From the NCBI GenBank assembly GCA_900542325.1, contig UQMY01000004.1, positions 179-64,178 of the forward strand: a stretch of DNA of 64,000 nt. Reading direction: 5' to 3'. Within the stretch, counting starts at the first letter, position 1, and the number at the start of each line of letters is the position of its first letter. The notes under the pieces were generated by a model. That model was not told the origin of the DNA and searched no databases. It worked only from the letters and a program-made list of their open reading frames with translations. The DNA comes from an uncultured Collinsella sp. Lineage in GTDB: Bacteria > Actinomycetota > Coriobacteriia > Coriobacteriales > Coriobacteriaceae. A program made the translations under genes and the position numbers. Shown here piece after piece: positions 21,136-51,507 of the stretch.

Positions 21136-21269
21136 AGGTCGCGCCGCCAAAGGCCAGGCGCAAGCTTTTCGTAGATTCCGCACGAGCCGAAGAGCACTAA
21201 ATGTGCTCTTCGTGCGAGCCCAGGACCTGACCGAGCGAAAAGCTTGCGCCTGGCCTTTGGCGGCGCGAC
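21136..21269 (+). repeat. Family 1 nested-hairpin element, copy A, upstream of rplJ.
   Basis: A 35-bp perfect outer inverted repeat (21136-21170 and 21235-21269) encloses the core. The core holds the conserved TTCCGCACGAGCC, a 9-bp inner hairpin GAAGAGCAC-TAAAT-GTGCTCTTC, and GTGCGAGCCCAGGAC. Confidence 0.8.
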
Positions 21270-21549
21270 CGAGATGGTGGAATTGTGTGCAGCCAGGGTT
21301 GCCGTTGACCGACGCCGGGGTCCCCGCCATAATACTTTCGGTTCACGCACGAATCCGCTGCCAGAGACAGCCGGTGCAAACGGGCATCGCCCGCGAGCTT
21401 AATGGGATATCCCGCCAGCCGAGGTGGTCGAGTAGATATGTCTTCTCGCCCCCGTCGCTCATGCAGCGCGGGGGCTTTCTTTTTGGACATGCCCCCGTCA
21501 CGTCCTTGTGGCGGACCGTGCCCGGAAAGAATTCGAGGAGGTGTAATTT

Positions 21550-22071
21550 ATGCCCCAGCAGTACAAAATCGACAAGGTTGCAGAGATCGAGTCCCGTATC
21601 GCCGAGAACGCCGGTCTGTTCGTCGTCAACTACAACGGTCTGACGGTTAAGCAGGCTCAGGAGCTGCGTCATCAGCTTCGCGAGTGCGGCGCCGAGATGA
21701 AGGTCTACAAGAACAACCTGGTCAAGATCGCTCTCAAGAACCAGGAGCAGCCCGAGATCGACGAGATCCTCGCCGGCCCCGTCGCTTATGTGTTCTACGA
21801 GACCGAGCCGGTCGAGGCCGCTAAGGCCCTTAAGGACTTCTCCGCTAAGTCCAAGGGCGTCCTTGAGATCAAGGGCGGTATCTCCGACGGCAAGGCCGTT
21901 TCCGCTGATGATGTTAAGGCTATCGCCGAGCTGCCCACCAAGGATCAGCTTCTCGGTCAGATCGCCGGTCTCATCTCCGGTTTCGCTCGCGACATTGCTG
22001 TCTGCGTCAACGGCGTTTCCTCTGGTCTCGCTCGTTCGATCCAGCAGGTCTCCGAGCAGAAGGCAGCCTAG
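21550..22071 (+). CDS. rplJ: 50S ribosomal protein L10.
   Basis: Typical L10 sequence with a GAGGAGG RBS. Confidence 0.95.
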   Translation: MPQQYKIDKVAEIESRIAENAGLFVVNYNGLTVKQAQELRHQLRECGAEMKVYKNNLVKIALKNQEQPEIDEILAGPVAYVFYETEPVEAAKALKDFSAKSKGVLEIKGGISDGKAVSADDVKAIAELPTKDQLLGQIAGLISGFARDIAVCVNGVSSGLARSIQQVSEQKAA

Positions 22072-22173
22072 TCGCTGTTTTCACCCGCGGCGGCAACGCC
22101 GCACCCCTGGCGCATTCGCGCCGTGTTTTAACTGATCTCCGTGCACAGACACGGAAACCGAAAGGACTTAGAA

Positions 22174-22551
22174 ATGGCTAAGCTTACCACCGATGAGATC
22201 ATCGATGCTCTTAAGGAAATGACCCTTCTCGAGGCTTCCGAGCTCGTCAAGGCTATCGAGGACACCTTCGGCGTTTCCGCCGCTGCTCCTGCCGCTGTTG
22301 TCGCCGCTCCCGCTGCTGGCGCTGCTGAGGCCGAGGAGAAGACCGAGTTTGACGTCGTGCTCGAGGGCTTCGGCGACAACAAGATCCAGGTCATCAAGGC
22401 CGTCCGTGAGCTCACCAACCTTGGCCTGAAGGAGGCCAAGGAGGTCGTCGAGGGCGCTCCCAAGGCTGTTCTCGAGGGTGCCAAGAAGGAGGACGCCGAG
22501 GCTGCCAAGGAGAAGCTCGAGGCTGCTGGCGCTGCTGTCACCCTCAAGTAA
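22174..22551 (+). CDS. rplL: 50S ribosomal protein L7/L12.
   Basis: [34 protein letters not shown], then an Ala-rich hinge and a conserved C-terminal domain. The start is moved from the ORF-track 22141 to 22174. Confidence 0.95.
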
Positions 22552-22578
22552 TCAGGCTTTCTCGCCAGATTTCTTTGC

Positions 22579-22619
22579 AGACGGGGTTCGCATTGCGAGC
22601 CCCGTCTTTTTTGTTTTTT
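22579..22619 (+). terminator. Rho-independent terminator after rplL.
   Basis: GACGGGGTTCG-CATTG-CGAGCCCCGTC followed by TTTTTTGTTTTTT. Confidence 0.85.
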
Positions 22620-22865
22620 GGCCCCTCGGCATCGGTTGCTCAAACTGCCATGTTCTGTGATTTGCGTCGTATCGGGTGCCCTGTCGTTGGGCAATAAAAT
22701 TGCACCATTCGAGCAATAATTTGCGTTGACCTGCTGAAGAATTGTCTCTGCCTTGTAGCGACATATAGTTCCAGCGGTAAGATGCTTGGGTATCGCAATT
22801 TGGTCTGCGGCTGTGCGCCGCACGCACGGGGCGCTTTTGCGCCTGCGAAAGGATCTTTGAATAAC

Positions 22866-23774
22866 ATGAAGGCAATCATCCCCGCCGCCGGTCTTGGCAC
22901 GCGTTTTCTGCCTGGCACCAAGTGCACGCCCAAAGAAATGCTACCGGTGCTCGACAAGCCGGTCATCCAGTATGTCGTCGAGGAGGCACTCGACCCCGAG
23001 GAGGTCGACGACGCCATCATCGTTACCTCGCCCGGCAAGCCCGAGCTGCTGAACTACTTCCAGCCCGACCGTTCGCTCGAGAACCTGTTGCGCGAGCGCG
23101 GCAAGAACGCCTATGCCGATGCCGTCGCCCACGCTGGCGGTATGCCGGTCGACTTCCGTTATCAGTACGAGCCCAAGGGCCTCGGCCATGCTATTCGCTC
23201 TGCTGCCGACGCCGTGGCAGGGGAGAACTTCCTGGTTCTTCTGGGCGACTACGTTGTACCTAACCGCGACATCTGCGACAAGATGCTCGCCGTTTCCAAG
23301 GAGCACGGTGGCGCTTCGGTTATCGCCGTCGCTGCTTGCTCGCCCGAGGAAGTCAGCCGCTACGGTGTTATCGCCGGCGAGCGCGTCGGTTCGCTCGAGG
23401 GCGCCGAGGACGTTGCCGATGCCGAGCCGGGCGCTGTCTGGCGTATCGGCGGTCTGGTTGAGAAGCCCGCTCCCGAGGCTGCTCCGTCCAACCTGTACAT
23501 CGTCGGTCGCTACCTGCTGAGCCCGCTGGTCATGGACTTGCTGGCAGATCAGCAGGCCGGCAAGGGCGGCGAGATCCAGCTCACCGACGCCATGGCCCGT
23601 TCGCTCGACCGCGAGGCCATGTATGCCGTCGTCATCGACCCGCTGTCGGGCTACGACACCGGCACTCCCTCTGGTTGGATGGCCACCAACGCCCTCATGG
23701 CTGCAAGCGACCCCCGCTTTGCCGATGCCTTCTGGGATGCCATCGACGAGCGCGGCGGATTGATGCGCAAGTAA
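22866..23774 (+). CDS. galU: UTP--glucose-1-phosphate uridylyltransferase.
   Basis: MKAIIPAAGLGTRFLPGTKCTPKEMLPVLDKPVIQYVVEEA, with a GAAAGGA RBS. Confidence 0.85.
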   Translation: MKAIIPAAGLGTRFLPGTKCTPKEMLPVLDKPVIQYVVEEALDPEEVDDAIIVTSPGKPELLNYFQPDRSLENLLRERGKNAYADAVAHAGGMPVDFRYQYEPKGLGHAIRSAADAVAGENFLVLLGDYVVPNRDICDKMLAVSKEHGGASVIAVAACSPEEVSRYGVIAGERVGSLEGAEDVADAEPGAVWRIGGLVEKPAPEAAPSNLYIVGRYLLSPLVMDLLADQQAGKGGEIQLTDAMARSLDREAMYAVVIDPLSGYDTGTPSGWMATNALMAASDPRFADAFWDAIDERGGLMRK

Positions 23775-23795
23775 GCCTTCGGGCATCGACATTTA

Positions 23796-23828
23796 CGGGC
23801 GCGGACTTCGGTTCGTGCCCGTTTTTTA
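23796..23828 (+). terminator. Rho-independent terminator after galU.
   Basis: CGGGCGCGGACTTCGGTTCGTGCCCG followed by TTTTTTA. Confidence 0.7.
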
Positions 23829-24061
23829 TAAGAGCTGCGATTGCCGGCCCTCTGTTCACAGAAAATATATGAACAGATGTTCGATATACATACATCTACC
23901 TGCGTGTTTTCTGTCGAAAAACTTTGCTACTCCAAAAACTCAATCGCGTCAAGGCTTTTCTTGCCCAACGGTCGGTACCTGATAAACTATTAGGTTGCGA
24001 TAACTGGCGAAGCTATGCCTCGCCAACCCACCGAGCATTTCCGTGAAGGAGGAAAAACCTG

Positions 24062-27553
<3,492 letters not shown>

Positions 27554-27559
27554 TTGACT

Positions 27560-32035
<4,476 letters not shown>

Positions 32036-32230
32036 TTAGTTCCGCCGTTCTAACGAACGGCGGCGACCTCCGTCGCTGCGCGGCCCCCAGAGCTACAATC
32101 TGTCATTCAAAAGGCAGGGCATGACCAAAAGGTCAATGCCCTGCCTTTTTCATGCCACCTTGTACGCTCTGGGGGCCGCTCGCTTGCGTATGCTCAACCT
32201 GTTGCGTTCCGTTGATCCCTTGCCAAAAAG
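32036..32230 (+). ncRNA. Family 2 structured intergenic module, copy 2. It lies immediately after the rpoC stop and upstream of the ECF sigma factor gene.
   Basis: Hairpin 1 is CCGCCGTTC-TAAC-GAACGGCGG. A long-range helix GGCCCCCAGAGC / GCTCTGGGGGCC (12 bp) encloses hairpin AGGCAGGGCATGACCAAAAGGTCAATGCCCTGCCT followed by TTTTT. All three helices covary with copy 1. Confidence 0.5.
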
Positions 32231-32342
32231 GGACAGGTTTATTTGGTCGGTTTTTCATGCTTGAATTTGAAACATTTCGCCCGACAAGAGCGTATCTATG
32301 GTGAGGGCCTCATCGAGAACCATTAATGTCACCGGGAGGTGA

Positions 32343-33890: not shown

Positions 33891-33894
33891 GATT

Positions 33895-33930: not shown

Positions 33931-34097
33931 GCATTAAATGGACGGTTAGACCGAGCGATATACTTCCGAAGACGCCGCCGATTTCCATGCGACAGATGAG
34001 AGCAGATCAACGCTGGAGTGCGACGTTTCCCCAGATAAAACCGACCATAATAAACCTGTCCCTATTTGGAAGGGAACGTTGCCCCAACGAGCACGTC

Positions 34098-34236
34098 GGA
34101 TTCCCGGGCCGGGCGGCACAGGGGTTAAGTTTGTCGCGAGTTCCGCACGAGCCGGAGGCCACTTAATGTGGCCTCCGTGCGAGCCAGGACTGTAGAGCAG
34201 CAAACTTAAAACCTGGGCCGCCCGGTCCGGGGATCC
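34098..34236 (+). repeat. Family 1 nested-hairpin element, copy B, upstream of rpsL.
   Basis: The outer stem is 36 bp (31 of 36 paired, including 2 G-U pairs that are valid only for plus-strand RNA). The core is TCGCGAGTTCCGCACGAGCC, inner hairpin GGAGGCCAC-TTAAT-GTGGCCTCC, and GTGCGAGCCAGGACTGTAGAGCAG. Confidence 0.8.
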
Positions 34237-34442
34237 TCCCAAGCGCACAGGAGGGGATTCCTTTTGTGTAGGCTTTGCGGAAATGTGCCGATTTTAGGAT
34301 ACGCCCGGCGGCGTGGTCTGTTGACGGCACAGCTAACGCCACGTATCCTATCGAACTGCGTGTTTCGTAGGGGGATGCTGACCCCTCGATTCAAGCCGTT
34401 GCACTTTACAGAAAGCTGGAATCATTCGAGAAGGAGTACGCT

Positions 34443-37547: not shown

Positions 37548-37856
37548 TTGGCTACCCAGAAGATCCGCATTCGCCTCAAGGGCTATGATCACGAGGTCGT
37601 CGATCAGTCCGCGAAGCTCATCGTCGAGACCGCTCAGAAGACCGGCGCTCGCGTTTCCGGTCCTGTCCCCCTGCCCACCGAGCGCAACCTGTACACGGTT
37701 ATCCGCTCGCCGCACGTGAACAAGGACTCCCGTGAGCAGTTCGAGATGCGCACCCACAAGCGCCTCATCGACATCCTCGACCCCACCTCGGGCACCGTTG
37801 ATTCGCTTATGCGTCTCGACCTCCCCGCTGGCGTCGACATCGACATCAAGCTCTAA
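37548..37856 (+). CDS. rpsJ: 30S ribosomal protein S10.
   Basis: (M)[20 protein letters not shown]... Confidence 0.95.
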
Positions 37857-39937: not shown

Positions 39938-40174
39938 ATGGCAGATCAGAAGACCTTCGAGCGCGTTTGCGATGTTATCCGCGAGACCGCCGGTCTTGAC
40001 GACGTCGAGATGAAGCCCGAGTCCACGCTCGAGGAGATCGGCCTCGACAGCCTGGGCACCGTCGAGATCCTCGTCGCCGTCGAGGATGAGTTTGGCATCC
40101 AGCTCGATACCGAGGAGAACCCCAAGACGGTCGGCGAGTTCGCCGATACGGTCGAGGCGGCATTGGAGAAGTAG
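39938..40174 (+). CDS. acpP: Acyl carrier protein.
   Basis: 78 aa with the LGLDSL phosphopantetheine attachment motif. Confidence 0.95.
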   Translation: MADQKTFERVCDVIRETAGLDDVEMKPESTLEEIGLDSLGTVEILVAVEDEFGIQLDTEENPKTVGEFADTVEAALEK

Positions 40175-40176
40175 TG

Positions 40177-41121
40177 ATGCTCAAGTCTCCTCTCTGCGAT
40201 CTACTCGGCATCGAAAAGCCCGTGTTCCAGGGCGGTATGGCCTGGATTGCCGACGCCTCGCTGGCATCTGCCGTGTCCGAGGCGGGCGGCTTAGGGATTA
40301 TCGCGGCCATGAACGCCGACGCTAACTGGCTGCGCGACCAGATTCACGAGCTGCGCGCCAGGACGGATAAGCCCTTTGGCGTCAACGTTATGCTCATGAG
40401 CCCGTTTGCCGACGAGGTCGCGCGGGTCGTGATTGACGAGCGGGTGCCGGTCGTCGTGACGGGTGCCGGCAATCCCACCAAGTACATGAAGGCGTGGAAC
40501 GAGGCGGGCATCAAGGTCATCCCGGTTGTTGCCTCGGTGGCGCTGGCGCGTCTCGTGGCGCGTCGCGGAGCCACTGCCGTGGTTGCCGAGGGCACCGAAT
40601 CAGGCGGCCATATTGGCGAGACCTCGACGATGGCATTGGTGCCGCAGGTTGTCGATGCGGTCGATATTCCCGTGGTTGCGGCTGGCGGTATCGCTGATGG
40701 CCGCGGCGTGGCGGCCGCCTTTATGCTGGGCGCCGCCGGCGTGCAGGTGGGTACGCGCTTTCTGATCGCAGATGAGTGCACCGTATCGGAGCAGTACAAG
40801 GAGATGGTCCTGAAGGCCAACGACACCTCGACGCGTGCGACCGGCCGCTCGACGGGACACCCGGTGCGTGCCCTCAAGAGCCCCTTCACCAACGCCTACG
40901 CCAAGAGCGAGGCGGCGGGCGTAAGCGTCGAGGAGCTCGGGGCCATGGGCACGGGCGCCCTTCGCAAGGCCGCCAAGGACGGCAATTACGAAGAGGGCTC
41001 GTTTTTGTGTGGACAGATTGCCGGCATGGTCAACGAGCGCCAAAGCGCACGTGAAATCGTTGACGACCTGGTCGATGGCGCCGAGCACGTCCTGAAGGGT
41101 GCGTGCGCATGGGTGGCGTAG
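40177..41121 (+). CDS. fabK: Enoyl-ACP reductase II, FabK (FMN/nitronate monooxygenase-like).
   Basis: ...IEKPVFQGGMAWIADASLASAVSEAGGLGII..., an NPD family TIM barrel. The gene overlaps the acpP stop. Confidence 0.85.
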   Translation: MLKSPLCDLLGIEKPVFQGGMAWIADASLASAVSEAGGLGIIAAMNADANWLRDQIHELRARTDKPFGVNVMLMSPFADEVARVVIDERVPVVVTGAGNPTKYMKAWNEAGIKVIPVVASVALARLVARRGATAVVAEGTESGGHIGETSTMALVPQVVDAVDIPVVAAGGIADGRGVAAAFMLGAAGVQVGTRFLIADECTVSEQYKEMVLKANDTSTRATGRSTGHPVRALKSPFTNAYAKSEAAGVSVEELGAMGTGALRKAAKDGNYEEGSFLCGQIAGMVNERQSAREIVDDLVDGAEHVLKGACAWVA

Positions 41122-42035
41122 CGTTTCTGTTTGCCGGCCAGGGCGCCCAGCACCCCGCGATGGGCGTCGACCTGATCGAGGCATCGCCGGCGGCCGCCGA
41201 GGTGTTCGCCATTGCCGACGAGGTGCGCCCGGGGACCAGTGAGCAGTGCCGAAGCGCCTCCAAGGAGGAGCTCTCGCAGACCGAGAACACGCAGCCGTGC
41301 GTGTTCGTTCACGATCTGGCAGCGGCTGCCGCCCTGCGTGAGCGCGGCGTGGTACCTGCCGCCTGTGCGGGTTTTTCGCTTGGCGAGGTCGCCGCGCTCA
41401 CCTTTGCGGGGGCGTTCGATACGCGAGCGGGCTTTGAGCTCGTGTGCGAGCGCGCGGCGCTGATGGCCGCGGCTGCCGAGCGCCATCCGGGCGGCATGCG
41501 CGCCGTCATCAAGCTCGATGCGGCGCAAGTCGAGAACCTGGCAAAACAGGCCGGCGAGGACTGCTGGCCGGTCAACTACAACAGTCCGCAGCAGACGGTT
41601 GTTGCCGGACCGCCCGAGGCGCTGCAGGAGCTCGACGTCCTAGTAAAAGAGGCTGGCGGCCGCGCTATGAAAGTCGCGGTGTCGGGCGCATTTCATAGCC
41701 CCTATATGGCCGAGGCGACTGAGGGGCTGGCGACGTATATCCAAGCCGGCCACGCGCCGTCACCGCTGCTGATTCCGGTCATGGCAAACATGACGGCGGC
41801 GCCCTATCCGGCGGACCCGCGAGCGGCATCGGATGTCTTGGCCAATCAGGTGAGTCATGCCGTTCGTTGGGTCGACACGCTGCATGCTCTGCAGAATCAG
41901 GGCATCGACACGTTTATTGAGGTCGGCCCTGGCAAAACGCTGTCGGGCCTGGCCAAGCGTACGCTGAGCGACGTTCGCGTGTATTCGTGCGAAACGGCCG
42001 AGCAGGTCGCAGCTATTGCCGACGAGCTCGCATAG
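41109..42035 (+). CDS. fabD: ACP S-malonyltransferase.
   Basis: AFLFAGQGAQ and GFSLGE active-site motifs are present. The start (41103 or 41109) is uncertain. Confidence 0.9.
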   Translation: MGGVAFLFAGQGAQHPAMGVDLIEASPAAAEVFAIADEVRPGTSEQCRSASKEELSQTENTQPCVFVHDLAAAAALRERGVVPAACAGFSLGEVAALTFAGAFDTRAGFELVCERAALMAAAAERHPGGMRAVIKLDAAQVENLAKQAGEDCWPVNYNSPQQTVVAGPPEALQELDVLVKEAGGRAMKVAVSGAFHSPYMAEATEGLATYIQAGHAPSPLLIPVMANMTAAPYPADPRAASDVLANQVSHAVRWVDTLHALQNQGIDTFIEVGPGKTLSGLAKRTLSDVRVYSCETAEQVAAIADELA

Positions 42036-42065
42036 TCCACAGGGCTGTAACCCGAAAGGAATGAC

Positions 42066-42839
42066 ATGGGCAACTTGAACAACGGCGCGCTCGAGCGCAA
42101 CGACTCACGTCGCGTGGCACTGGTCACGGGCGGCTCGCGGGGTATCGGCCGCGCCTGCGCTGTCGGTCTGGCGGAGGACGGCTTTGATATCGCCGTCGTC
42201 TATGCCGGCAGCGTCGATGCGGCGCGCAAGACGTGCGAAGCCTGTGAGGCGGTTGGCGCCACGGCACGCGCATATCAATGCGACGTGGCCGATCCCGCTG
42301 CTGTCAACGCGTGCGTGGAAGCGGTCCTCAACGACTTTGGTTCCATTTGGGCGCTCGTCAACAACGCCGGCATCACCCGCGATGGCCTGCTCATGCGCAT
42401 GGGCGATGACGCATTCGATCGCGTGCTCGATGTCAATCTCAAGGGAACATTCAATATGACGCGCGCGCTCACCAAGACCTTTATGCGCCAGCGCGGCGGT
42501 TGCGTCGTCAACATGAGCTCGGTCGTGGGCCTGATGGGCAATGCCGGGCAAGCCAACTATGCTGCTTCCAAGGCGGGCGTGATAGGGCTTACCAAGGCGG
42601 TGGCGCGCGAGCTTGCGCCTCGTGGCGTACGAGCGAACGCGGTCGCTCCCGGGTTTGTCGAGACAGATATGACGGCAAAGCTCTCGGAGAAGGTGCGTAC
42701 GGCAACCGAGGAACAGATTCCCCTTAAGCGCATGGCACGTCCCGAGGAAGTGGCCGGCGTGGTGCGCTTTTTAGCGAGCGATGCGGCTGCTTACATTACG
42801 GGCGAGGTCGTGCGCGTCGACGGCGGAATGGCGATGTAG
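42066..42839 (+). CDS. fabG: 3-oxoacyl-ACP reductase.
   Basis: SDR motifs are present: TGGSRGIGRA, NAG and YAASKAG. Confidence 0.9.
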   Translation: MGNLNNGALERNDSRRVALVTGGSRGIGRACAVGLAEDGFDIAVVYAGSVDAARKTCEACEAVGATARAYQCDVADPAAVNACVEAVLNDFGSIWALVNNAGITRDGLLMRMGDDAFDRVLDVNLKGTFNMTRALTKTFMRQRGGCVVNMSSVVGLMGNAGQANYAASKAGVIGLTKAVARELAPRGVRANAVAPGFVETDMTAKLSEKVRTATEEQIPLKRMARPEEVAGVVRFLASDAAAYITGEVVRVDGGMAM

Positions 42840-42875
42840 AAACCAGGGCCGAAGAACGGCTTGGATGAGGAGACC

Positions 42876-44126
42876 ATGATGGAACAGAGAGTTGCAATCA
42901 CCGGCATCGGTGCCGTATCGCCGCTCGGCAATACCGCGCTTGCCACCTGGGCGGCCATGTGCGCCGGGACCTGTGGCATCGGCCCGATCACGCACTTCGA
43001 TACCGATGCGTTTACCGCCAAGGTGGCGGCCGAAGTCAAGGGCTTTGACGGCAACGAGTACTTTGGCAAGCGCGACGCCAAGCATCTGGACCCCTGCGTT
43101 CAGTTTGCGCTGGTGGCTTCGGACGAGGCAATGCACGATGCGGGCTTTGATGCCGAAGGCGCCATCGATCGCGAGCGCCTGGGCGTTTACGTGGGGTCGG
43201 GCGTGGGCGGCATGCAGACGCTCGTCGACAACGTCCATACGATTGCCGACCGTGGGCCCCGCCGCGCATCGCCTTACATGATCGCGATGATGATCCCCAA
43301 CATGGCATCGGGCAATATCGCAATCCGTCACAAGGCAAAGGGACCGACCCTGCCAGTCGTGACTGCGTGCGCGACCTCGGCCCATGCGGTGGGCGAGGCG
43401 TTCCGTGCTATTAAGCACGGCTATGCCGACGCGATCCTCGCGGGCGGTGCCGAGGCGGCCATTATCCCCGATGCTGTTGCAGGCTTTACGTCCTGCCGCG
43501 CATTGACCACCAACCCCGATCCCGCGACGGCCTGCCGCCCGTTCGATGCAGACCGCGACGGCTTTGTGATGGGCGAGGGCGCTTGCGTGCTGGTACTCGA
43601 GAGCATGGAGCATGCGCAGGCGCGCGGTGCGCACATTTATGCCGAGGTCGTGGGCTACGGCAACACCGATGATGCCTATCACATTACGAGTCCCGACCCC
43701 GATGCCGCCGGCATTGCCCGTGCGATATCGCTGGCGGTAGCCGAGGGCGACGTCAAGCCTTCCGAGGGTCTCTACATCAACGCCCACGGCACCTCGACCA
43801 AGCTCAACGATTCGTCCGAGACGACAGGCATTAAGCGGGCGCTCGGCGAGGACGCGGCACGCGCCGCACACGTCTCGTCGACCAAGTCGATGACCGGGCA
43901 CATGATCGGTGCCACGGGTGCCATCGAGGTCATGGCCTGTGCCATGGCGCTCGAGCAGGGCGTGGTGCCCCCGACCATTAACTACCACACGCCCGATCCC
44001 GCCTGCGATCTTGATTACACGCCTAATCGAGCGGTTCGCGCCGACCTTACCTGGGCGCTTTCGACCAACCTGGGCTTTGGCGGGCACAACGCCGCCATCG
44101 CGCTGCGTAGATATACGAGGAGCTAG
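42876..44126 (+). CDS. fabF: 3-oxoacyl-ACP synthase II.
   Basis: A KAS I/II fold with catalytic Cys (VTACATSAHA) and His residues. The start is moved from the ORF-track 42861 to 42876. Confidence 0.9.
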   Translation: MMEQRVAITGIGAVSPLGNTALATWAAMCAGTCGIGPITHFDTDAFTAKVAAEVKGFDGNEYFGKRDAKHLDPCVQFALVASDEAMHDAGFDAEGAIDRERLGVYVGSGVGGMQTLVDNVHTIADRGPRRASPYMIAMMIPNMASGNIAIRHKAKGPTLPVVTACATSAHAVGEAFRAIKHGYADAILAGGAEAAIIPDAVAGFTSCRALTTNPDPATACRPFDADRDGFVMGEGACVLVLESMEHAQARGAHIYAEVVGYGNTDDAYHITSPDPDAAGIARAISLAVAEGDVKPSEGLYINAHGTSTKLNDSSETTGIKRALGEDAARAAHVSSTKSMTGHMIGATGAIEVMACAMALEQGVVPPTINYHTPDPACDLDYTPNRAVRADLTWALSTNLGFGGHNAAIALRRYTRS

Positions 44127-44129
44127 AGC

Positions 44130-44603
44130 ATGGATTCCAAAAGACTTGCCGAGATAGCCGATGTGATGGAGGACCGCGGCCTTACGCGCGTACGTGTTGA
44201 GGAGCCCGATGGCACCGCGGTCGAACTCGAGCGCGCGAGTGCCGCGCAGCCGGTTGCCGTGCCCATGCCTATGCCGGGTGCCGTGGCCGCTCAAGTTGCA
44301 GCTCCCACAGTCGCGCCTGCCGCACCGGAACCCGCCACGCAGACACCTGCCGCCGCGCCGGAGCCCAAGGGCACCGAGGTGACTGCTCCCATGGTGGGCG
44401 TCTTCTATGCTGCCCCTGCGCCGGGCGACGAGCCATTTGTGCGCGTGGGCTCCAAGGTCAAGGCCGGCGAGACCCTCTGCATCATCGAGGCCATGAAGGT
44501 TCTCAACGAGGTGACGGCCGAGGCAGACGGTGAGGTGCTCGAGATCTGCGTGGCCGACGGCGACCTCGTGGAGTTTGGCAGCTGCCTCATGAGGATCGGA
44601 TAG
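44130..44603 (+). CDS. accB: Acetyl-CoA carboxylase biotin carboxyl carrier protein.
   Basis: An Ala/Pro-rich linker and the biotinylation motif EAMKVLNEV are present. Confidence 0.9.
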   Translation: MDSKRLAEIADVMEDRGLTRVRVEEPDGTAVELERASAAQPVAVPMPMPGAVAAQVAAPTVAPAAPEPATQTPAAAPEPKGTEVTAPMVGVFYAAPAPGDEPFVRVGSKVKAGETLCIIEAMKVLNEVTAEADGEVLEICVADGDLVEFGSCLMRIG

Positions 44604-44612
44604 GTGATATCC

Positions 44613-45035
44613 ATGAACAAAGAAGAGCTCAAGAAGCTATTACCGCATCGCGAACCGATGCTTTTGCTCGACGAAGCCGAGCTAGTGGGCGACGAGGCCC
44701 ACGGCAAGATCACGATTACGGGTGACGAGTACTTTTTGCAGGGGCATTTTCCGGGAAACCCGGTAGTCCCCGGCGTGATTCAGTGCGAGATGCTCGCCCA
44801 AAACTGTTGCATGCTGCTGATGGGCGACGAGGAGGCGCGCGGCGCGACGCCGTTCTATACGAGCCTCGATAAGGTGCGCTTTAAGCGCCCGGTGCGCCCG
44901 GGCGACACGGTTGATCTGGTGTGCACCATCACGCGTGCGCGCGGGCCGTTCCGCTTTGCGACGGGTACTGCGAGCGTCAACGGTGAGGTTTGCTGCCGCG
45001 CCGATATGTCTTTTGCACTCATGCACGAAAGTTAA
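44613..45035 (+). CDS. fabZ: 3-hydroxyacyl-ACP dehydratase.
   Basis: ...LPHREPMLLLDEAEL...FLQGHFPGNPVVPGV... Confidence 0.9.
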   Translation: MNKEELKKLLPHREPMLLLDEAELVGDEAHGKITITGDEYFLQGHFPGNPVVPGVIQCEMLAQNCCMLLMGDEEARGATPFYTSLDKVRFKRPVRPGDTVDLVCTITRARGPFRFATGTASVNGEVCCRADMSFALMHES

Positions 45036-45046
45036 GGAAGGCTTCA

Positions 45047-46389
45047 TGTTCGACAAAGTGCTCATCGCCAACCGCGGAGAAGTCGCGGTCCGTGTTATCC
45101 GCGCGTGCCGCGATATGGGCATCAAGACCGTCGCCGTTTATTCCACGGCCGATGCGGACGCGCTGCACGTGCAGCTTGCCGACGAGGCGTATTGCATCGG
45201 CGGCCCGCGTCTTGCCGAGAGCTACCTCAACGACGATGCCGTGCTCACCTGTGCCGTGAAGTCGGGGGCAAAGGCGATCCATCCTGGCTACGGTTTCTTT
45301 TCCGAGAAGGCGAGCTTCGTGCGCGACTGCGACAAGTTCGGTCTGGCGTTTGTCGGTCCTTCGGCCGAGGTGATCGACAGCATGGGCGACAAGGACGCCG
45401 CACGCCGAACGGCCGCTGCTGCGGGCGTGCCCATCGTGCCGGGCTGCGATTTGCTCAAAAGCCCCGAGGAAGCAACGGCCGAGGCCGAGCGCATCGGCTG
45501 CCCCGTGCTTATTAAGGCGCGCGCGGGCGGCGGCGGTCGCGGTATTCGCAAGGTCGAGCGCGTGGAAGATGCGGCAAAGGCGTTCATCGAGGCGCGTGCC
45601 GAGGGTGAGGCCGTTTTTGGCGACGGCGAGTGCTACATGGAGAAGTTCGTTGCGCCGGCGCATCACGTTGAGGTACAGATTATGGCCGATAAGCAGGGCC
45701 ATGTGTTTTCGCTCGGCGAGCGCGAGTGCTCGGTGCAGCGCCGCAACCAAAAGCTGATCGAGGAGAGCCCCGCGCCGTGCCTCGACGGACGCGATGATAT
45801 TCGTGCCCGTATGCACAAGGCCGCGCGCGACCTGGCTCGTGCCGTTGGCTATGAGGGCGCTGGCACCATCGAGTTTTTGTACTCAGATGACGGCAATTTC
45901 TACTTTATGGAAATGAACACGCGCTTGCAGGTGGAGCATCCGGTTACGGAGTTTGTGACCGATACCGACCTGGTTAAGTGGCAGCTGCGCGTGGCTGCCG
46001 GCCAGCCTCTGCCCTTTGAGCAGGAGGACGTACCGGTCCGCAACCACGCCATGGAGTGCCGCATCAATGCCGAAACGCCGGACTTTCTACCGTCATGTGG
46101 AACGGTCACCGCGTTGCGTGTGCCGGGTGGTCCGCGCGTGCGCTGGGATTCCGCCATGTTTACCGGAGCGAAAGTTCCGCCGTACTACGACTCCATGCTC
46201 GGCAAGCTCATCGTGTGCGCGCCCACGCGTGACGGTGCCATTCGCAAGATGCGCTCGGCCCTGGGCGAGCTCGTGATTGAGGGCGTGAGCGAAAATAGCG
46301 AGCTTCAGCTCGACGTGCTGGCAAACGACGAGTTTTTGTCGGGCATGTATCACACCGATCTGATGGGGCATCTCTATGCTGATGAATAG
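45047..46389 (+). CDS. accC: Acetyl-CoA carboxylase biotin carboxylase subunit.
   Basis: MFDKVLIANRGEVAVRVIRACRDMGIKTVAVYS... The start is moved from the ORF-track 44911 to 45047, after an AAGGAAGG RBS. Confidence 0.93.
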
Positions 46390-48100
46390 AAAAGCGAAGA
46401 CGGTCAATGTCCTTGAGGGGCCGATAACCGAGTCGGGCGCCGAGTTCCCCGCGCGCCACGTGTTTGTCAAATGCCCGGAGTGCCGCCGTGTGATCGATGA
46501 GGCGCGCCTGCACGACAACCTCGAGGTCTGCCCTCGTTGCGGCAAACACTTTCGCGTGAGCGGTCGCGCGCGCATGCGCATGACGGTCGACGCGGGTACC
46601 TTTGAGGAATGGGATGCCAATCTGGCGTCGAAGGACTTCCTCTCGTTTCCCGGTTATGCCGACAAGCTTAAGAGCGCGGGCGAGCGTTCGGGCGAGCGAG
46701 ATGCCGTTGTGTGCGGCAGGGGCAAAATCCGCGGTTGCGATACGGCACTCTTCTTTATGGATGCCAACTTTATGATGGGCTCGATGGGCTCCGCAGTGGG
46801 CGAAAAGATCTGTCGCACATTTGAGCGTGCGACCGAGCTGGGATTGCCAGTTGTCGGCTTTACCGTTTCGGGCGGCGCGCGCATGCAAGAGGGCGTGACC
46901 TCGCTTATGCAGATGGCCAAGATTTCTGCGGCGGTTAGGCGCCACAGCGAGGCGGGCGGCCTGTATATCACGGTGCTCACCGACCCCACGACCGGAGGCG
47001 TAACCGCGAGCTTTGCCATGGAGGGCGACATTATCCTGGCCGAGCCCGATGCCCTGACGGCATTTGCCGGCCCGCGCGTGATCGAGCAGAACATGCACAA
47101 GCGTCTGCCCAAGGGATTCCAGCGTTCCGAGTTTTTGCTGGAGCACGGCTTTTGCGATGCCGTTGTTCCGCGTGGTGAGATTGCGCTCACGATAGGCGAG
47201 CTGCTGGCGCTGCACGAAGGGCACGCGCCCGGCCTGGGGGCACCGCATGAGATCGTGCATACGGGTCGTCGCGGCAAAAAGCTGGGACACTTGTTTAAGC
47301 GCTCGGCCGCACCAAAAAGCGCGCTCGAAATCGTCAAACAGACTCGCTCGGCGAACCGCGCCACGGCAGGCGAGATGATCTCGTTGGGTCTCGACGGATT
47401 CGTAGAGCTGCACGGCGACCGCTACTTTGGCGACGATGCTGCCGTGGTGGGCGGCATCGGCTGGAAAGACGGGCGACCCGTGACGCTTATCGCCATCGAG
47501 CGCGGTACCACGACCAAAGAGCGCATGCGTCGCAACTTTGGCATGGCGCATCCTGAGGGCTACCGCAAGGCGCGGCGCCTAATGCGCCAGGCCGAAAAGT
47601 TTGGTCGACCGGTTCTGTGCCTGGTCGATACTTCGGGCGCGTTTTGCGGCATCGGTGCCGAGGAGCGCGGTCAGGGCGAGGCGATTGCCCAGAATCTCAT
47701 GGAGATGAGCGGCCTTAAGACGCCGATTGTCTCGGTGGTGACAGGCGAGGGCGGCTCTGGTGGCGCACTGGCACTGTCCGTGGCCGACCGCATCCTGATG
47801 CTCTCAAGCTCGGCCTATTCGGTCGTGAGCCCCGAGGCCTGTGCGTCGATCCTGTGGAAGGATACCGAGCGCGCGAATGAGGCCGCTGAGGCGCTTAAGC
47901 TCACGGCCCCCGATCTGTTGGCGCTCGGCATCATCGACGGCATTGTCGACGATAGGGGCCTGTCGCATGAGGAGATCGCCGGTGTCGTCATGTCCTCGGC
48001 ATTTGATGCCTTTGATACGCTTGGGCAGCTCGACGACGCGACCCTCACAAACCTCCGCTACGAAAAGTACCGCGCAATCGGTCAGTACCGCACGATGTGA
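46376..48100 (+). CDS. accD: Acetyl-CoA carboxylase carboxyltransferase, a fused beta-alpha polypeptide (AccD-AccA).
   Basis: The N-terminus carries the AccD zinc ribbon CPECRRV...CPRCGKHFR and the beta domain. The C-terminal half is an AccA-like alpha domain. The gene overlaps the accC stop. Confidence 0.85.
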   Translation: MLMNRKAKTVNVLEGPITESGAEFPARHVFVKCPECRRVIDEARLHDNLEVCPRCGKHFRVSGRARMRMTVDAGTFEEWDANLASKDFLSFPGYADKLKSAGERSGERDAVVCGRGKIRGCDTALFFMDANFMMGSMGSAVGEKICRTFERATELGLPVVGFTVSGGARMQEGVTSLMQMAKISAAVRRHSEAGGLYITVLTDPTTGGVTASFAMEGDIILAEPDALTAFAGPRVIEQNMHKRLPKGFQRSEFLLEHGFCDAVVPRGEIALTIGELLALHEGHAPGLGAPHEIVHTGRRGKKLGHLFKRSAAPKSALEIVKQTRSANRATAGEMISLGLDGFVELHGDRYFGDDAAVVGGIGWKDGRPVTLIAIERGTTTKERMRRNFGMAHPEGYRKARRLMRQAEKFGRPVLCLVDTSGAFCGIGAEERGQGEAIAQNLMEMSGLKTPIVSVVTGEGGSGGALALSVADRILMLSSSAYSVVSPEACASILWKDTERANEAAEALKLTAPDLLALGIIDGIVDDRGLSHEEIAGVVMSSAFDAFDTLGQLDDATLTNLRYEKYRAIGQYRTM

Positions 48101-48116
48101 CAAAGGGACAGCCCGC

Positions 48117-49355
48117 ATGTCACATTGGGAAAGGCGTTCCATGTCACAAGTTTCTAACACCTCGTTTACAACGACGGTTTCATCAAACGCCATGGCCGTG
48201 GTGGACTATCTGTCCAAAAGCATGATGTCGGCGCTGCCGTTTATTGTCTGCGCGGCGTTGTTCCGCACCGCCGCCGTCATTATGGGCGAAGGCATGCTGG
48301 GCCTGTGGTCTGCCGATTCCGAAATCTATCGCCTGTTCTACAGTTGGCTCTATAACGCCGGCTATTACTTTTTGCCCATCTATCTTGGTTGGGCCGCTGC
48401 CCGCCAGCTCGGTTGCTCGGAGCAGCTGGGCATGATGCTGGGCGGCGTATTGATTGTGCCCGATCTGCTTAAGCTCGTTGATGCCGCATCGACGACGGGG
48501 GCATCGATGACTTTCGTGTATGGTCTACTTCCCGCGCCGGTCAACGATTACACGACGACTGTTATTCCGGTTCTCATCTCGGTGCCCGTGCTATGGCAGG
48601 TGGAGCGTTTCTTTAAGCGCACTATCCCTCAGGCTGTGGCGTTTTCTTTTGTACCGTTTGCAACCATGCTTGTCATGGTTCCGGTGTCGCTGTGTGTTAC
48701 GGCGCCGGCAGGCAGCTATCTGGGCATGCTGTTGGGACAGTTTATGTTTATGCTTGGCAATTCCGGTGGCATGGTGTCGCTGCTCACGCTCATGGGGCTT
48801 GCCGCGGGCTGGGAGTTTCTTAAGATCGCGGGTGTCAGCAACGTTGTCCTATCGCTCGCCTATGCGCAGTTTATGAGTGTGGGAACGGATTCGTGCATCC
48901 TGATCGCCGCGACGATGGCAACGTTCGCCGTTTGGGGCATGCCCTTTGGCGCGTCGCTCCGCGTTGTGGATAAGGACGAGAAGGCGCTCATGCTGGGCTA
49001 TTCGATCTCGGGCGTGCTTGGCGGCGTAAGCGAGCCGGCGCTGTACGGCTGCGGCTTTAAATATGGCAGGTGTCTGACATGCATGGCCATTGGCGGCGCC
49101 GTCGGAGGCCTTGTTGCGGCCGTGGGCCACGTTACGGCCTATACCATCGGCATGACGAATGTCCTTATGGTCATTGGCTTTGCCACGGGCGGCATTTCGA
49201 ACCTGCTGTGGTGCTGCGCTGCCGGTGGCACGGCATTTGCGGTGTCTGCGGCGCTGAGCTACTGCTTTGGCGTGGTGCCGGCGAGGGGGCGGGCGGCAGA
49301 AGACGAAGTCGATTCGCCCGAAACAGTGGCGAGCGCTGCTGAAGCAAGCGTATAA
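48117..49355 (+). CDS. PTS EIIC-like integral membrane protein (glucose-family-like).
   Basis: About 10 TM segments. The N-terminal pattern resembles PtsG (…DYLSKSMMSALPFIVCAALF…) and there is a GxSEP motif (GGVSEPALYG, cf. GITEP). The start and the family assignment are both uncertain. Confidence 0.45.
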   Translation: MSHWERRSMSQVSNTSFTTTVSSNAMAVVDYLSKSMMSALPFIVCAALFRTAAVIMGEGMLGLWSADSEIYRLFYSWLYNAGYYFLPIYLGWAAARQLGCSEQLGMMLGGVLIVPDLLKLVDAASTTGASMTFVYGLLPAPVNDYTTTVIPVLISVPVLWQVERFFKRTIPQAVAFSFVPFATMLVMVPVSLCVTAPAGSYLGMLLGQFMFMLGNSGGMVSLLTLMGLAAGWEFLKIAGVSNVVLSLAYAQFMSVGTDSCILIAATMATFAVWGMPFGASLRVVDKDEKALMLGYSISGVLGGVSEPALYGCGFKYGRCLTCMAIGGAVGGLVAAVGHVTAYTIGMTNVLMVIGFATGGISNLLWCCAAGGTAFAVSAALSYCFGVVPARGRAAEDEVDSPETVASAAEASV

Positions 49356-49505
49356 ACCTGTGCGACAAAAGGACGATTCCTTTGTCATGTTCCAAGGTCG
49401 TGGCCCGTGTGGGTTGCGGCCTTTTTGTATCTGTGGGGCAAAGTGGCTACACTACAATCCGTTTGAGCAATAGATATATAGGTAGTACCGTGGGGGCGGA
49501 TATAG

Positions 49506-50660
49506 ATGGTCGAGTGGATTGTTAAGCGTGCGCAGGGCGACCGTGCACGCGTGGGTACGTTGACGGGCATGGTGTGTATTCTCGCCAATGTGGCACTATG
49601 CGCTGCGAAGGGTGCAATTGGCGTGCTGTCGGGTTCGGTTTCGATCGTGGCAGATGCCATGAACAACCTGTCCGATGCCAGCTCGAATATCGTGAGCGTG
49701 CTGGGCTTTAAGCTGGCGACCAAGCCGGCCGACCCCGAGCATCCTTACGGACATGGCCGCTACGAGTATCTCTCGGGTCTGGTCGTGGCGGCGCTCGTGC
49801 TGCTGATTGGCGTTGAGCTGGTGAAGTCCTCGGTTGAGCGCATCATCCACCCCGAACCTGTCGAGTTCTCGCTTGCCCTGGTGGCAGTCTTGGTGCTTTC
49901 GATGATTGTTAAGCTCTGGATGGCGGCCCTCAACCAAAAGCTCGGCGATCGCATTGAGTCCGAGACGCTGCATGCGACCGCTCAGGACTCAAAGAACGAT
50001 GTCCTAGCTACGGGTGCTGTGCTGGCGTGCGCAATTGTTTCGCAGGTGACGCACATCAATCTTGACGCATGGGTCGGCCTTGCCGTTGGCGCCTATATCG
50101 GCTGGAGCGGCTTTGAGCTCATCCAGGATACGGTGAGCCCGCTTTTGGGCCAGGCACCCGATCCAAAGCTGGTCAAGCACATTCGAGACAAGATCATGAG
50201 CTACCCCGGCGTTTTGGGCGTTCACGATTTGATGGTTCACGACTACGGCCCGGGCAGGAAGTTCGCAAGCGCTCACGCCGAGATGGCAGCCGAGGCCAGC
50301 CCGCTGGAAAGTCACGACACGCTCGATAACATCGAGCAGTCGTTTAGGGTCGAAGACGGCATGATCGTCACGCTCCATTACGATCCCATCGTGACCGACG
50401 ATCCAAAGGTGGCGAGCATGCGTCTGCGCATCAACGCTATGGCTCAAGAGATTGATAGCCGCCTCTCGATCCACGACCTACGCTGTGTTCCGGGCCCCAC
50501 GCATACCAACGTAATCTTTGACTGCGTACGTCCCTCAGATTTGGGCATGGGAGCCGATGAGCTCAAAAACGCGTTGGCCCAGAGGGTCGAATCGGAATAT
50601 CCCAAGTCGGTCGCCAAGATCACGATCGACGAGGACTATGTCGGCCATACCCACGAGTAG
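49506..50660 (+). CDS. Cation diffusion facilitator family transporter.
   Basis: A six-TM N-terminal domain with metal-site His/Asp residues (...HPYGHGRYEYLSG...) and a C-terminal cytoplasmic domain are present. Confidence 0.8.
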   Translation: MVEWIVKRAQGDRARVGTLTGMVCILANVALCAAKGAIGVLSGSVSIVADAMNNLSDASSNIVSVLGFKLATKPADPEHPYGHGRYEYLSGLVVAALVLLIGVELVKSSVERIIHPEPVEFSLALVAVLVLSMIVKLWMAALNQKLGDRIESETLHATAQDSKNDVLATGAVLACAIVSQVTHINLDAWVGLAVGAYIGWSGFELIQDTVSPLLGQAPDPKLVKHIRDKIMSYPGVLGVHDLMVHDYGPGRKFASAHAEMAAEASPLESHDTLDNIEQSFRVEDGMIVTLHYDPIVTDDPKVASMRLRINAMAQEIDSRLSIHDLRCVPGPTHTNVIFDCVRPSDLGMGADELKNALAQRVESEYPKSVAKITIDEDYVGHTHE

Positions 50661-50699
50661 GGCTGTGCCGGCAAGGTAACTGAAGCAGAAGGGGAGAGC

Positions 50700-51326
50700 A
50701 TGAAGAAGCTGTATCTACTCCGCCACGGTCAGACGGAATTTAACGTTAAAAAGCTGGTCCAGGGCCGCTGCGATTCACCGCTGACCGACCTGGGCCGTCA
50801 GCAGGCACGGACGGCAGCCGCATGGCTCAAAGCCCACGGTGTCGTCCCGGATAAAGTGGCCTCTTCGCCCTTAGGCCGCGCCATGGACACAGCTCAGCTC
50901 GTCGCTACCGAACTCCTTGGCCCGGACGCAGCAGTCGAGCCCTGCGAAGGCATCATCGAGCGCAGCTACGGTACCTTCGAAGAAGGCCCCCACGACGCCC
51001 TGCCCACCGATGTCTGGGACCCGGGCGAGGACCTGGTCCCCTTCGGAGGAGAAGGAAGTCATGCCCTGCAGGAGCGCATGGTAGGCACCCTCACCAATCT
51101 CATGGGCGCCGAGGGCATCGAAACCCTCCTAGCAGTAAGCCACGGCAGCGCCAGCCGCCAATTCATCAAGGCCGCAGCCCCAGAAGGTTTCGAGCTCCCA
51201 ACAAAACTCCCCAACTGCGCCATCATGATCTTCAATTTCGAAGAGGAAAAGTCGGGAGAAGAAGGCAACGCGCCCCAATCCAAGTTTATCTTGCAGCAAA
51301 TCATCGATCCTCAACAAAGTAATTAG
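50700..51326 (+). CDS. Histidine phosphatase family protein (phosphoglycerate mutase-like).
   Basis: The LLRHGQTEFN catalytic His motif is present. Confidence 0.8.
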   Translation: MKKLYLLRHGQTEFNVKKLVQGRCDSPLTDLGRQQARTAAAWLKAHGVVPDKVASSPLGRAMDTAQLVATELLGPDAAVEPCEGIIERSYGTFEEGPHDALPTDVWDPGEDLVPFGGEGSHALQERMVGTLTNLMGAEGIETLLAVSHGSASRQFIKAAAPEGFELPTKLPNCAIMIFNFEEEKSGEEGNAPQSKFILQQIIDPQQSN

Positions 51327-51370
51327 CTGAGCGAGCAGAGTTAAGCAGACATCAACGTGTCGTCTCCCGA

Positions 51371-51507
51371 GCACGGCGGAGGGCCGGAGAAATATATTAA
51401 GGTCATCGCGAGTTCCGCACGCAAAGGAGAGCACTTAATGTGCTCTCCGTCTTGCGCAGGACTGTAGAGCAGGGACCTTAATATATTTCTCCGGCCCTCC
51501 GCCGTGC
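51371..51507 (+). repeat. Family 1 nested-hairpin element, copy C, upstream of rplC.
   Basis: A 34-bp perfect outer stem (51371-51404 and 51474-51507) encloses the core. The core is ATCGCGAGTTCCGCACG, inner hairpin GGAGAGCAC-TTAAT-GTGCTCTCC, and AGGACTGTAGAGCAG. Confidence 0.8.

Follow-up and report, generated by a model that had tools for sequence, protein, structure and literature searches.

A dispersed family of intergenic palindromic repeats in Collinsella with a conserved core and site-specific stems

The repetitive extragenic palindromic (REP) sequences of Enterobacteria and Pseudomonas, together with BIME and REPIN, are dispersed extragenic elements found at the 3' ends of genes and between convergent or tandem genes. 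They often lie a few nucleotides from stop codons, their positions are conserved between related strains, REPINs form hairpins of ~100 nt, and the roles proposed for them include mRNA 3' protection, termination, and the binding of gyrase or other proteins. Miniature inverted-repeat transposable elements (MITEs) and the named intergenic repeats ERIC/IRU, Correia of Neisseria, and BOX, RUP, and SPRITE of pneumococci are small (100–170 bp), non-coding, multi-copy sequences with long hairpins; they are lineage-restricted, have empty sites, and lie beside promoters or terminators, where they can alter transcript boundaries. Integron attC sites keep a hairpin structure while much of the stem sequence varies, and act as folded single strands read by a protein. 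Palindromes can also be perfected by mutation: quasipalindrome template-switching, described in E. coli and yeast and established as a mutagenic mechanism in E. coli, converts imperfect palindromes to perfect ones in one step and generates multi-base changes and indels (PMC7202029). Here we describe a hairpin element that resembles these systems in the features listed, three copies of which (A, B, and C) lie in a 64,000-nucleotide stretch of an uncultured Collinsella sp. (contig UQMY01000004.1, positions 179 to 64,178), hereafter the window. We conclude with high confidence that A, B, and C belong to a dispersed family of intergenic palindromic repeats that is specific to this lineage.

A preliminary description, made from the letters of the window, had reported three diverged nested hairpins on one strand, each upstream of a ribosomal-protein operon. 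All three were found at the described places and on the same strand, and they are a genuine feature. Copy A (21137–21270, plus strand; 88.3 bits with the covariance model described below) has a perfect 35-bp outer stem (21137–21171 / 21236–21270). Its core at 21172–21235, also read on the plus strand, consists of TAGA-TTCCGCACG-AGCC, the inner hairpin GAAGAGCAC/TAAAT/GTGCTCTTC (21189–21211), and then GTGCGAGCC-CAGGAC-CTGACCGAG. The junction subtype of this copy, CGTAGA...CCTGACCGAGCG, was seen again at other sites, and orthologues of copy A were present in seven of the other stretches compared, which are given L numbers here (L020, L024, L028, L044, L055, L082, and L105). Copy B (34098–34236, plus strand; 93.4 bits) has its core at 34134–34200 and its inner hairpin at 34154–34176. 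The 36 positions of its stem (34098–34133 / 34201–34236), read from the sequence, comprise 31 Watson-Crick pairs, 2 G·T pairs, and 3 mismatches; the earlier count for this stem, 31 of 36 with the two G-U pairs included, was slightly off. The orthologues of copy B in L021 and L104 have near-perfect 37-bp stems, that of L021 being perfect. Copy C (51364–51514, plus strand; 101.5 bits) has its core at 51405–51473 and its inner hairpin at 51426–51448, and its 41-nt arms (51364–51404 / 51474–51514) are 95% complementary. The perfect long stems reported earlier for A and C were thus recovered (35 bp in A, the inner 34–35 bp in C).

The conserved core reported for the three copies was also reproduced. 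A 38-nt degenerate core pattern matched the window three times, always on the plus strand, and had no match in 100 shuffles. Either strand of A, B, and C folded much better than shuffled controls (z from -8 to -15). With the covariance model, A, B, and C were the only members in the window (88–101 bits), and the next match, at 23 bits, was the rpoC terminator hairpin. This match (32081–32178) is an ordinary terminator, in which a hairpin with 29-nt arms and a T-run directly follow rpoC. The ends of A, B, and C lie 207–280 nt upstream of the start codons of rplJ, rpsL, and rplC, respectively.

Across the family the core is asymmetric and ~65 nt long, and is built of TTCCGCACG, a 5-bp helix, a 9-bp hairpin topped by CAC-TWAAT-GTG, the sequence CAGGAC, and a 3' bulge. 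Twenty-nine alignment columns were invariant, including TTCCGCACG, the hairpin top CAC-T.AAT-GTG, and CAGGAC. The 5-bp helix below the inner hairpin occurs in three forms with different registers (CGCAC/GTGCG, CGCAA/TTGCG, and CACGA/TCGTG), in agreement with the earlier statement that the flanking helix is maintained by different sequences. The 9-bp inner hairpins of the window copies (GAAGAGCAC, GGAGGCCAC, and GGAGAGCAC) differ by compensated changes, as had been noted, and over the family the inner stem was drawn from a small set of variants, among them GGAAAGCAC, GGAGAGCAC, GGAGGCCAC, GAAGGCCAC, and GAAGAGCAC. The variant can differ between close orthologues with identical outer stems, for example between the window and L035 at the copy C site, and the cultured isolates L005 and L018 carry different alleles at one site. 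Hybrid elements were found in the metagenome-assembled genome (MAG) contigs L034, L072, L091, and L092, and also in L046, L047, and L075; these either combine a 5' arm and a 3' arm from different inner-hairpin variants or have left and right outer arms that do not match. Our reading of the mixed inner hairpins is that they would reflect short-patch exchange between copies, to which assembly chimeras may contribute. The constancy of the core suggests that it is held by selection, by concerted evolution, or by both, and it is probably where a protein recognises a folded single strand of DNA or RNA.

The preliminary description had proposed looking for further members in related genomes, and the family appeared when this was done with a pattern scan and a covariance model. 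The scan, in which the core pattern had 24 specified bases, covered 185,579 species-representative genomes; at least 120 stretches matched, nearly all of them named Collinsella. The listed stretches contained 136 instances, which with the three window copies gave 139, and full flanks were available for 118 of these. The covariance model, built from 52 diverse members, showed strong covariation, and in ~1 Mb from Collinsella it revealed hardly any additional diverged copies. Clustering by flanks gave 25–35 clusters, which came to ~28 orthologous sites among the matches listed after obvious duplicates were merged; each site occurred in 1–13 species, with few singletons. The elements are interrupted palindromes of roughly 105–165 bp with outer stems of 19–49 bp, and many contigs terminate within one, as expected of a repeat that breaks assemblies. 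On a 900-kb C. aerofaciens replicon the element occurred at 13 places, about one per 70 kb, a density that implies about 30–35 copies in a genome of the C. aerofaciens type. This replicon (NZ_OY725717.1, L137) is labelled 'plasmid 6' of strain TSDC17.2-1.1; it is non-mobilizable and resembles a part of the chromosome.

None of the 74 deduplicated copies lies inside a gene. The neighbours are housekeeping genes, including clpX/valS, thrC/thrB, polA/cof, pnp/rnj, tsaBD, pcrA, gyrA, and sdaA, as well as those for the fructose phosphotransferase system, groES, leuS, nrdD, and gatB. The link to ribosomal-protein operons suggested by the three window copies therefore did not hold for the family, since its ~28 intergenic sites are mostly beside ordinary housekeeping genes, and ~25 of them are unrelated to ribosomal proteins. 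The family is a REP/MITE-like intergenic repeat and not a ribosomal-protein leader RNA.

A few matches stood apart by their context. A contig binned as Methanobrevibacter smithii (CAVHBE010000088.1, L038) ends in a Collinsella element, probably owing to bin contamination. One site on the 900-kb replicon (L137, 1200–1400) adjoins a gene for a 762-aa protein without a Pfam or NCBIfam match. A tRNA gene and a partial, inverted tRNA 3' end are found next to it, and the site may mark where a prophage or integrated island ends. The core matches in viral contigs (L121–L123) appear to represent a single host site, next to a tRNA gene and a prophage-like region, and the covariance-model scores of L121 and L122 were identical to that of the L137 1200–1400 site.

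That A, B, and C lie upstream of, and co-directional with, ribosomal-protein operons would suit a cis-acting plus-strand RNA dedicated to these operons, whether a leader, a processing site, or an insulator, with its fold selected as RNA, and the very strong predicted folds and massive covariation would suit it as well. Apart from the many sites away from ribosomal proteins, the order of signals at the window copies argues against such an RNA. Copy A ends at 21270 and a promoter-like site for rplJ (TTGACC-17-CATAAT) follows at 21305–21333, while the end of copy B at 34236 is followed by a promoter-like site at 34321–34349, so that both copies lie upstream of scanned promoter-like sites that start 35–85 nt downstream of them. 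For copy C, a strict promoter scan found no promoter-like site; by eye, a TG-extended -10 (TGTATACT) was seen ~90 nt downstream, in a block that is near-invariant among orthologues. The real L10 leader is a separate conserved element downstream of copy A, where an L10_leader match was found at 21343–21490 with 31.4 bits, below the Rfam gathering score of 44. This Coriobacteriia L10 leader seems to lie just under the Rfam cut-off.

Relatives without the element support the same conclusion. From the -35 box onward, the rplJ locus is strongly conserved in Enorma phocaeensis, Collinsella sp. zg1085, C. vaginalis, and C. ihuae; upstream of the box there was no alignment with these four relatives, and the covariance model detected no element in the rplJ loci of Enorma, Collinsella sp. 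zg1085, C. vaginalis, or C. ihuae. Because the promoter and the L10 leader are conserved in relatives that do not have the element, the comparison shows the predicted rplJ promoter to be older than the insertion of copy A. At the empty site of C. ihuae the aminotransferase-rplJ gene order is kept, and the spacer is 338 nt, compared to 507 nt in the window. A ribosomal-protein leader was rejected on both counts, namely the position of copies A and B before their promoter-like sites and the retention of promoter and leader in the four relatives. The pnp-rnj spacer gave a second empty site, being 227 nt long without an element in C. bouchesdurhonensis and holding two elements in L006. Downstream of gatB, the covariance model found no element in the contig that carries the GatB named C. 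tanakaei or in L139. Precise insertion boundaries were sought at the rplJ (C. ihuae) and gatB sites, where the flanks were too diverged or the gene order was different. In another Collinsella-like genome without the element upstream of rplJ (L135), a gene for an ISL3-family transposase lies directly after rplL (3870–5243).

The placement of the family is non-random. Orientation was assigned from the asymmetric core, taking the window copies as plus and the CAGGAC side as the right end. At 23 of 28 sites, the gap to the gene boundary was smaller on the right than on the left. The hairpin begins 3–46 nt past a stop codon at 14 sites, and all 14 genes read into the right end; at least five of these sites have a canonical terminator, a hairpin with a T-tract, 50–115 nt beyond the element, which places the element inside the 3' untranslated region (UTR) there. 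The remaining 14 sites, among them A, B, and C, have the element upstream of a right-hand gene that points away from it. The preceding gene is also on the same strand at most of these upstream sites, and promoter-like sites downstream of the element were judged by eye to be present at several others. Only three sites are between divergent genes. Adjacent head-to-head pairs, with left ends facing, were found at three loci, indicating that orientation is not set by replication direction, and the existence of two placement classes means that there is no single transcribed strand.

The flanks also contained recurrent features. An AT(T)CAG motif was present 19–111 nt left of the palindrome in 21 of 34 site representatives (L001–L120), ~6-fold over the intergenic background of 0.105 per 120 nt; the window instance is at 21061–21065, and the motif is often just past the terminator T-tract of the upstream gene. 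The motif as a general feature of terminators was rejected, since it was enriched (~5-fold) only at terminators near elements. Left of copy B, a 45-nt block, CCCCAGATAAAACCGACCA(A/T)AATAAACCTGTCC (window ~34026–34070), recurs in the pnp-rnj spacer of L006 and L034. Its minus strand carries a small hairpin (34075–34059) with a T-rich tail, and the block may represent a terminator module or another small repeat. A longer conserved unit reaching into the flanks was considered and rejected, as this one block was all that two sites had in common.

The sites after stop codons would fit a host-beneficial RNA of 3' UTRs or intercistronic regions, acting as an mRNA stabiliser, an RNase III site, or a modulator of translation termination, with the pairing selected as RNA and any templating incidental. 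Such an RNA would account for the hairpins 3–46 nt past stop codons always having one orientation, for the canonical terminators that follow the element, for the conservation of sites across species with almost no decayed copies, and for the constrained core. REP stabilises upstream mRNA in E. coli, and REPs within 15 nt of stop codons reportedly affect translation (the work of Liang, Rudd and Deutscher in 2015); E. coli REPs are thus said to behave likewise. However, half of the sites have the opposite strand relation to the neighbouring gene, and an exonuclease block needs no conserved asymmetric core of ~65 nt. With the pattern of stem changes given below, which requires a DNA mechanism, this explanation is possible but doubtful. 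Each copy could also be an independent small-RNA gene with its own promoter and a long hairpin, for which the strong structure, the conserved core, and the small minus-strand hairpin with a T-rich tail left of copy B could be cited. Round the three window copies, promoter scans gave no site that leads into a copy, just the plus-strand ones downstream of A and B; no terminator is consistently attached, and many copies are 3–20 nt from stop codons, inside the transcripts of other genes. A small-RNA gene is therefore very unlikely.

The outer stems are almost perfectly paired. In 118 stems, 97.7% of positions were Watson-Crick pairs and 67 stems were perfect. In the 52-sequence alignment, 99.6% of cells were paired, and two-sided changes (338 cells) far outnumbered one-sided ones (13). 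The mismatches of the 77 distinct stems, after deduplication, were 20 G·T, 16 A·C, and 25 others, and G·U made up ~0.5% of cells in the two variable helices, as counted from the per-pair table. In structured RNAs, G·U usually accounts for far more, roughly a tenth of pairs. The preliminary description had held that the G-U wobbles of copy B make sense only for RNA from the plus strand, which the near balance of G·T and A·C (20 vs 16) does not bear out. The inference of a plus-strand RNA from G·U was rejected, since there was no family-wide bias and only the promoter-upstream class showed a weak, non-significant trend, a plus-strand G·U excess of 13 vs 4 (Fisher p=0.10 vs the other class).

Pairing was kept while the stem sequence diverged like its surroundings. 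The mean divergence of orthologous alleles was 0.19 for the stem and 0.21 for the left intergenic flank (p=0.26), and that of the core was far lower, at 0.08 (p=4e-7). The stem sequence thus appears to be essentially unconstrained while its pairing is kept. Hypervariable stems, which had been suspected from the copy C alignment and the bimodal divergence relative to 4-fold sites, were rejected, because stems change no faster than the left flank; the flanks of the copy C site are constrained.

The kinds of change in the stems point to copying of one arm from the other. Among 33 same-site pairs of alleles with perfect stems, 18 differed by internal indels, over at least seven sites, and the indels were present in both arms; the same 33 pairs also differed by 144 compensated substitutions. 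The alignment of copy C orthologues likewise contained compensated substitutions together with a 4-nt indel found in both arms. The ancestral pnp terminator is conserved at the empty C. bouchesdurhonensis site; its T-tract is overlapped in L006 by the outer arm GCCCTTTTGC, and the far arm there ends in an inverted copy, GCAAAAGGGC. Copy A is enclosed by a second, imperfect inverted repeat with 39-nt arms (82%), neither of which is assigned a strand. The right arm (21277–21315) overlaps the ancestral rplJ -35 box TTGACC (21305–21310), and the left arm (21095–21133) contains GGCCAAC, an inverted copy of the -35 region. The two arms of this repeat co-vary with each other in the orthologue L105.

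Mirrored indels together with inverted copies of flanking sequence are a signature of arm-to-arm templating at the DNA level, and such templating yields 'compensatory' change without selection on RNA. It is well supported that the complementarity of the arms is kept mainly by intra-strand template switching, as far as can be judged from comparing alleles. The earlier statement that structure-preserving divergence marks a selected fold was accordingly not upheld, given the mirrored indels, the inverted flank copies, and a stem divergence equal to that of the flank, and covariation is weak evidence for a selected RNA fold in this family. For the 3' UTR RNA, the near absence of G·U, which selection on RNA normally tolerates, and the mirrored indels and copied flanks are further points against. 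For the plus-strand RNA dedicated to ribosomal-protein operons, the weak G·U excess of the promoter-upstream class is a point in favour, set against the near absence of G·U overall, the indels mirrored in both arms, and the 14 sites where the adjacent gene would transcribe the opposite strand. This explanation is largely refuted and we regard it as the least probable of those weighed.

Stems of different sites are not wholly unrelated. They had 18 11-mers in common, compared to ~0.1 in shuffled controls, and the distal arms of different sites were slightly more alike than chance (z=4.3), with G-rich 5' arms. These likenesses would reflect common descent, exchange between copies, or both.

The earlier suggestion of a DNA structure recognised by a protein could still apply. 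In this case a host protein (gyrase-type, nucleoid-associated, or a recombinase) would bind the element as duplex or cruciform DNA, and its role would be in supercoiling or chromosome structure, as proposed for the BIME/REP of E. coli. The arms held by Watson-Crick pairs alone, without overall strand bias, agree with this, as do an orientation that goes with the nearest gene boundary and not with a single transcribed strand, 5' arms that are G-rich on both strands, and the location of copies before strong promoters and after gene ends, where transcription-driven supercoiling would be expected to accumulate. On the other side, the inner hairpin arms co-vary, whereas a sequence-specific dimer binding duplex DNA would need conserved arms, and no binding protein or motif has been identified. 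We consider a role of this kind unlikely.

Known classes of element were compared in turn. The preliminary description had recognised no known RNA class, and Rfam gave the same answer, with 0 matches over the whole window for 4227 models at gathering thresholds; at a permissive E≤1–10, only generic long-hairpin (miRNA-precursor) matches far below threshold were found round A, B, and C. The element is also, as had been stated, not an ordinary terminator. There was no T-tract after the hairpin on either side (mean T in the first 8 nt, 1.1 for plus and 2.5 for reverse), terminator scans found nothing at copies A and C, and near B they found only the small minus-strand hairpin left of the element. 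A core inserted into the loop of an old terminator was rejected, as the stems are too long, there is no T-tract, and the pnp terminator is intact beside the element. An inverton was rejected because the core was never flipped between orthologous sites in any of the instances. An integron attC was rejected because the centre is conserved and the base variable, the reverse of the attC layout, and the copies are scattered rather than in arrays. The REP/REPIN pattern was present in part: the elements are extragenic, multi-copy, and biased to gene 3' ends, while the stem conservation and GTAG-type 5' motif of that class were not found, the distal arms carrying almost no positional information. No prior description of the element was found in the literature by keyword or sequence string, or in plasmid and phage collections.

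Mobility was considered at greater length. That the element is no recent MITE had been stated before and agrees with every site having its own stem. A classical MITE was rejected because the arms differ between sites, common terminal repeats are absent, and target-site duplications are lacking; at the junctions of 70 distinct elements, direct repeats were at most 4 nt long, at chance frequency, although outward growth of the palindrome could have erased a duplication. Phage-derived stems were rejected, since the distal stems of A, B, and C had no exact match in 2.9 million viral contigs (exact matching only). Phage, plasmid, and viral collections yielded no parent element. The empty sites between species (rplJ in C. 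ihuae, pnp-rnj in C. bouchesdurhonensis) are a MITE-like trait, and the family might still be a selfish, non-autonomous element without host function, mobilised in trans by a transposase or HUH nuclease that reads the folded core, as RAYT does for REP. Consistent with this, the element is restricted to one lineage, congeners have empty sites, it occurs in multiple copies that are all intergenic, only its core is conserved while the rest varies, it breaks assemblies and forms the three head-to-head pairs, and the enriched AT(T)CAG on its left could be a target or boundary signal. A selfish element is nevertheless improbable. No two sites have a stem in common, copies at different sites are never near-identical, degenerate 'dead' copies were not encountered, and the orthologous occupancy across many species implies little recent movement, in addition to the lack of target-site duplications. 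No RAYT or transposase gene was seen by eye beside the copies in ~1 Mb of flank annotations, and no genome-wide search for a partner gene was made.

Overall, the best explanation is a dispersed palindromic family whose arms are templated at the DNA level and which has a REP-like role at transcript boundaries, to which we assign a probability of roughly 0.7. By analogy, our best guess for the function is a transcript-boundary element like the REP of E. coli. In a transcript, the long hairpin would block 3' exonucleases, serve as a target for RNase III cleavage, or both. At the sites after stop codons, the element would serve in the 3' UTR as an exonuclease block and/or RNase III site, and at the upstream sites it would shield strong downstream promoters from read-through; the earlier idea of an RNase III substrate or insulator remains a reasonable guess. 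The templating would consist of quasipalindrome correction and outward growth of the palindrome, with exchange between copies in addition, and the conserved core would act as a protein-recognition surface.

Several points weigh against this explanation. Sequence alone cannot separate selection on pairing from templated correction, and the direction of flank copying, clear at the pnp site, is only suggestive at copy A. The plus-strand G·U excess of the promoter-upstream class would fit some tolerance at the RNA level; it is weak, and copies like A, B, and C give no other hint of this kind. The orientation rule fits no one transcribed strand, as the right end faces the nearest boundary, be it a stop or a start codon. 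Many of the sequences come from MAGs, so some hybrid inner hairpins may be assembly chimeras, and the copy census rests on the matches listed and one 900-kb record rather than on whole genomes.

A more specific form of DNA templating can be imagined, in which the palindrome maintains itself. A nuclease- or polymerase-associated protein that recognises the core, or stalling at the core, would promote foldback and template-switch synthesis; this synthesis would keep the arms identical and extend them outward by copying the flank, such as the terminator T-tract or the -35 box. Each site would thereby build its own stem, and the host would co-opt the element as an oriented boundary or insulator, with its right end always facing the protected gene. 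We see only a small chance that this scheme is correct.

Whatever its function, the family bears on several questions beyond the window. Its recognition removes a tempting false lead, a novel ribosomal-protein leader. As far as our searches show, it is the first intergenic repeat family described for Collinsella, a genus that is abundant in the gut and has been studied clinically. Breaks between contigs in MAGs of this genus, and some of their chimeric joins, are explained by the repeat, and its site-specific stems could be strain markers. Near-perfect 'compensatory' covariation with mirrored indels in a neutrally drifting DNA palindrome is a warning for RNA discovery based on covariation, and the family could serve for studying quasipalindrome correction over evolutionary time. 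If the core is a protein-recognition site, the element would be a candidate regulator of housekeeping-gene expression, given its placement directly past stop codons, a short way upstream of the promoter-like sites of rplJ and rpsL, and upstream of rplC, groES, rnj, and aminoacyl-tRNA synthetase genes.

Two other features of the window were observed. At ~11850–12090, all predicted genes lie on the minus strand to the left of ~11.9 kb and on the plus strand to the right, which could mark a replication-origin-like region or a major divergence point. The usual S10 operon appears to be split by unrelated genes, with rpsJ (37548–37856) after fusA and rplC (51776) ~14 kb further on, according to the gene labels of the preliminary description.

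Set beside the known systems, the Collinsella element differs from each in a characteristic way. In REP the palindrome itself is conserved, with a GTAG-type 5' motif, whereas in the Collinsella element the stem is site-specific and the central asymmetric core is conserved. REP occurs in hundreds of copies, compared to tens for the Collinsella element, whose host is a genus of the Coriobacteriia and beside which no RAYT was seen (no genome-wide search). Unlike MITEs, it has no conserved terminal inverted repeats, target-site duplication, or known parent insertion sequence, and copies at different sites have in common only the core and scattered 11–13-mers of the stem. The TRIT motif of Mycobacterium tuberculosis, reportedly a conserved terminator-like hairpin presented by Gardner et al. 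2011 in the RNIE paper, is similar in being a conserved hairpin family after genes of an actinobacterial lineage, without a canonical U-tract. The Collinsella element is much longer, its core is complex, terminators are often found beyond it, and half of its copies are upstream of the next gene. In attC sites, the R''/L'' and L'/R' boxes at the base are conserved and the centre is variable, and the sites form tandem cassette arrays beside an integrase. Quasipalindrome template-switching is a mutational mechanism shown on short reporters, in contrast to the long-term evolution of a natural repeat family considered here. A conserved centre combined with stems built at each site is unusual among REP/MITE-like repeats.

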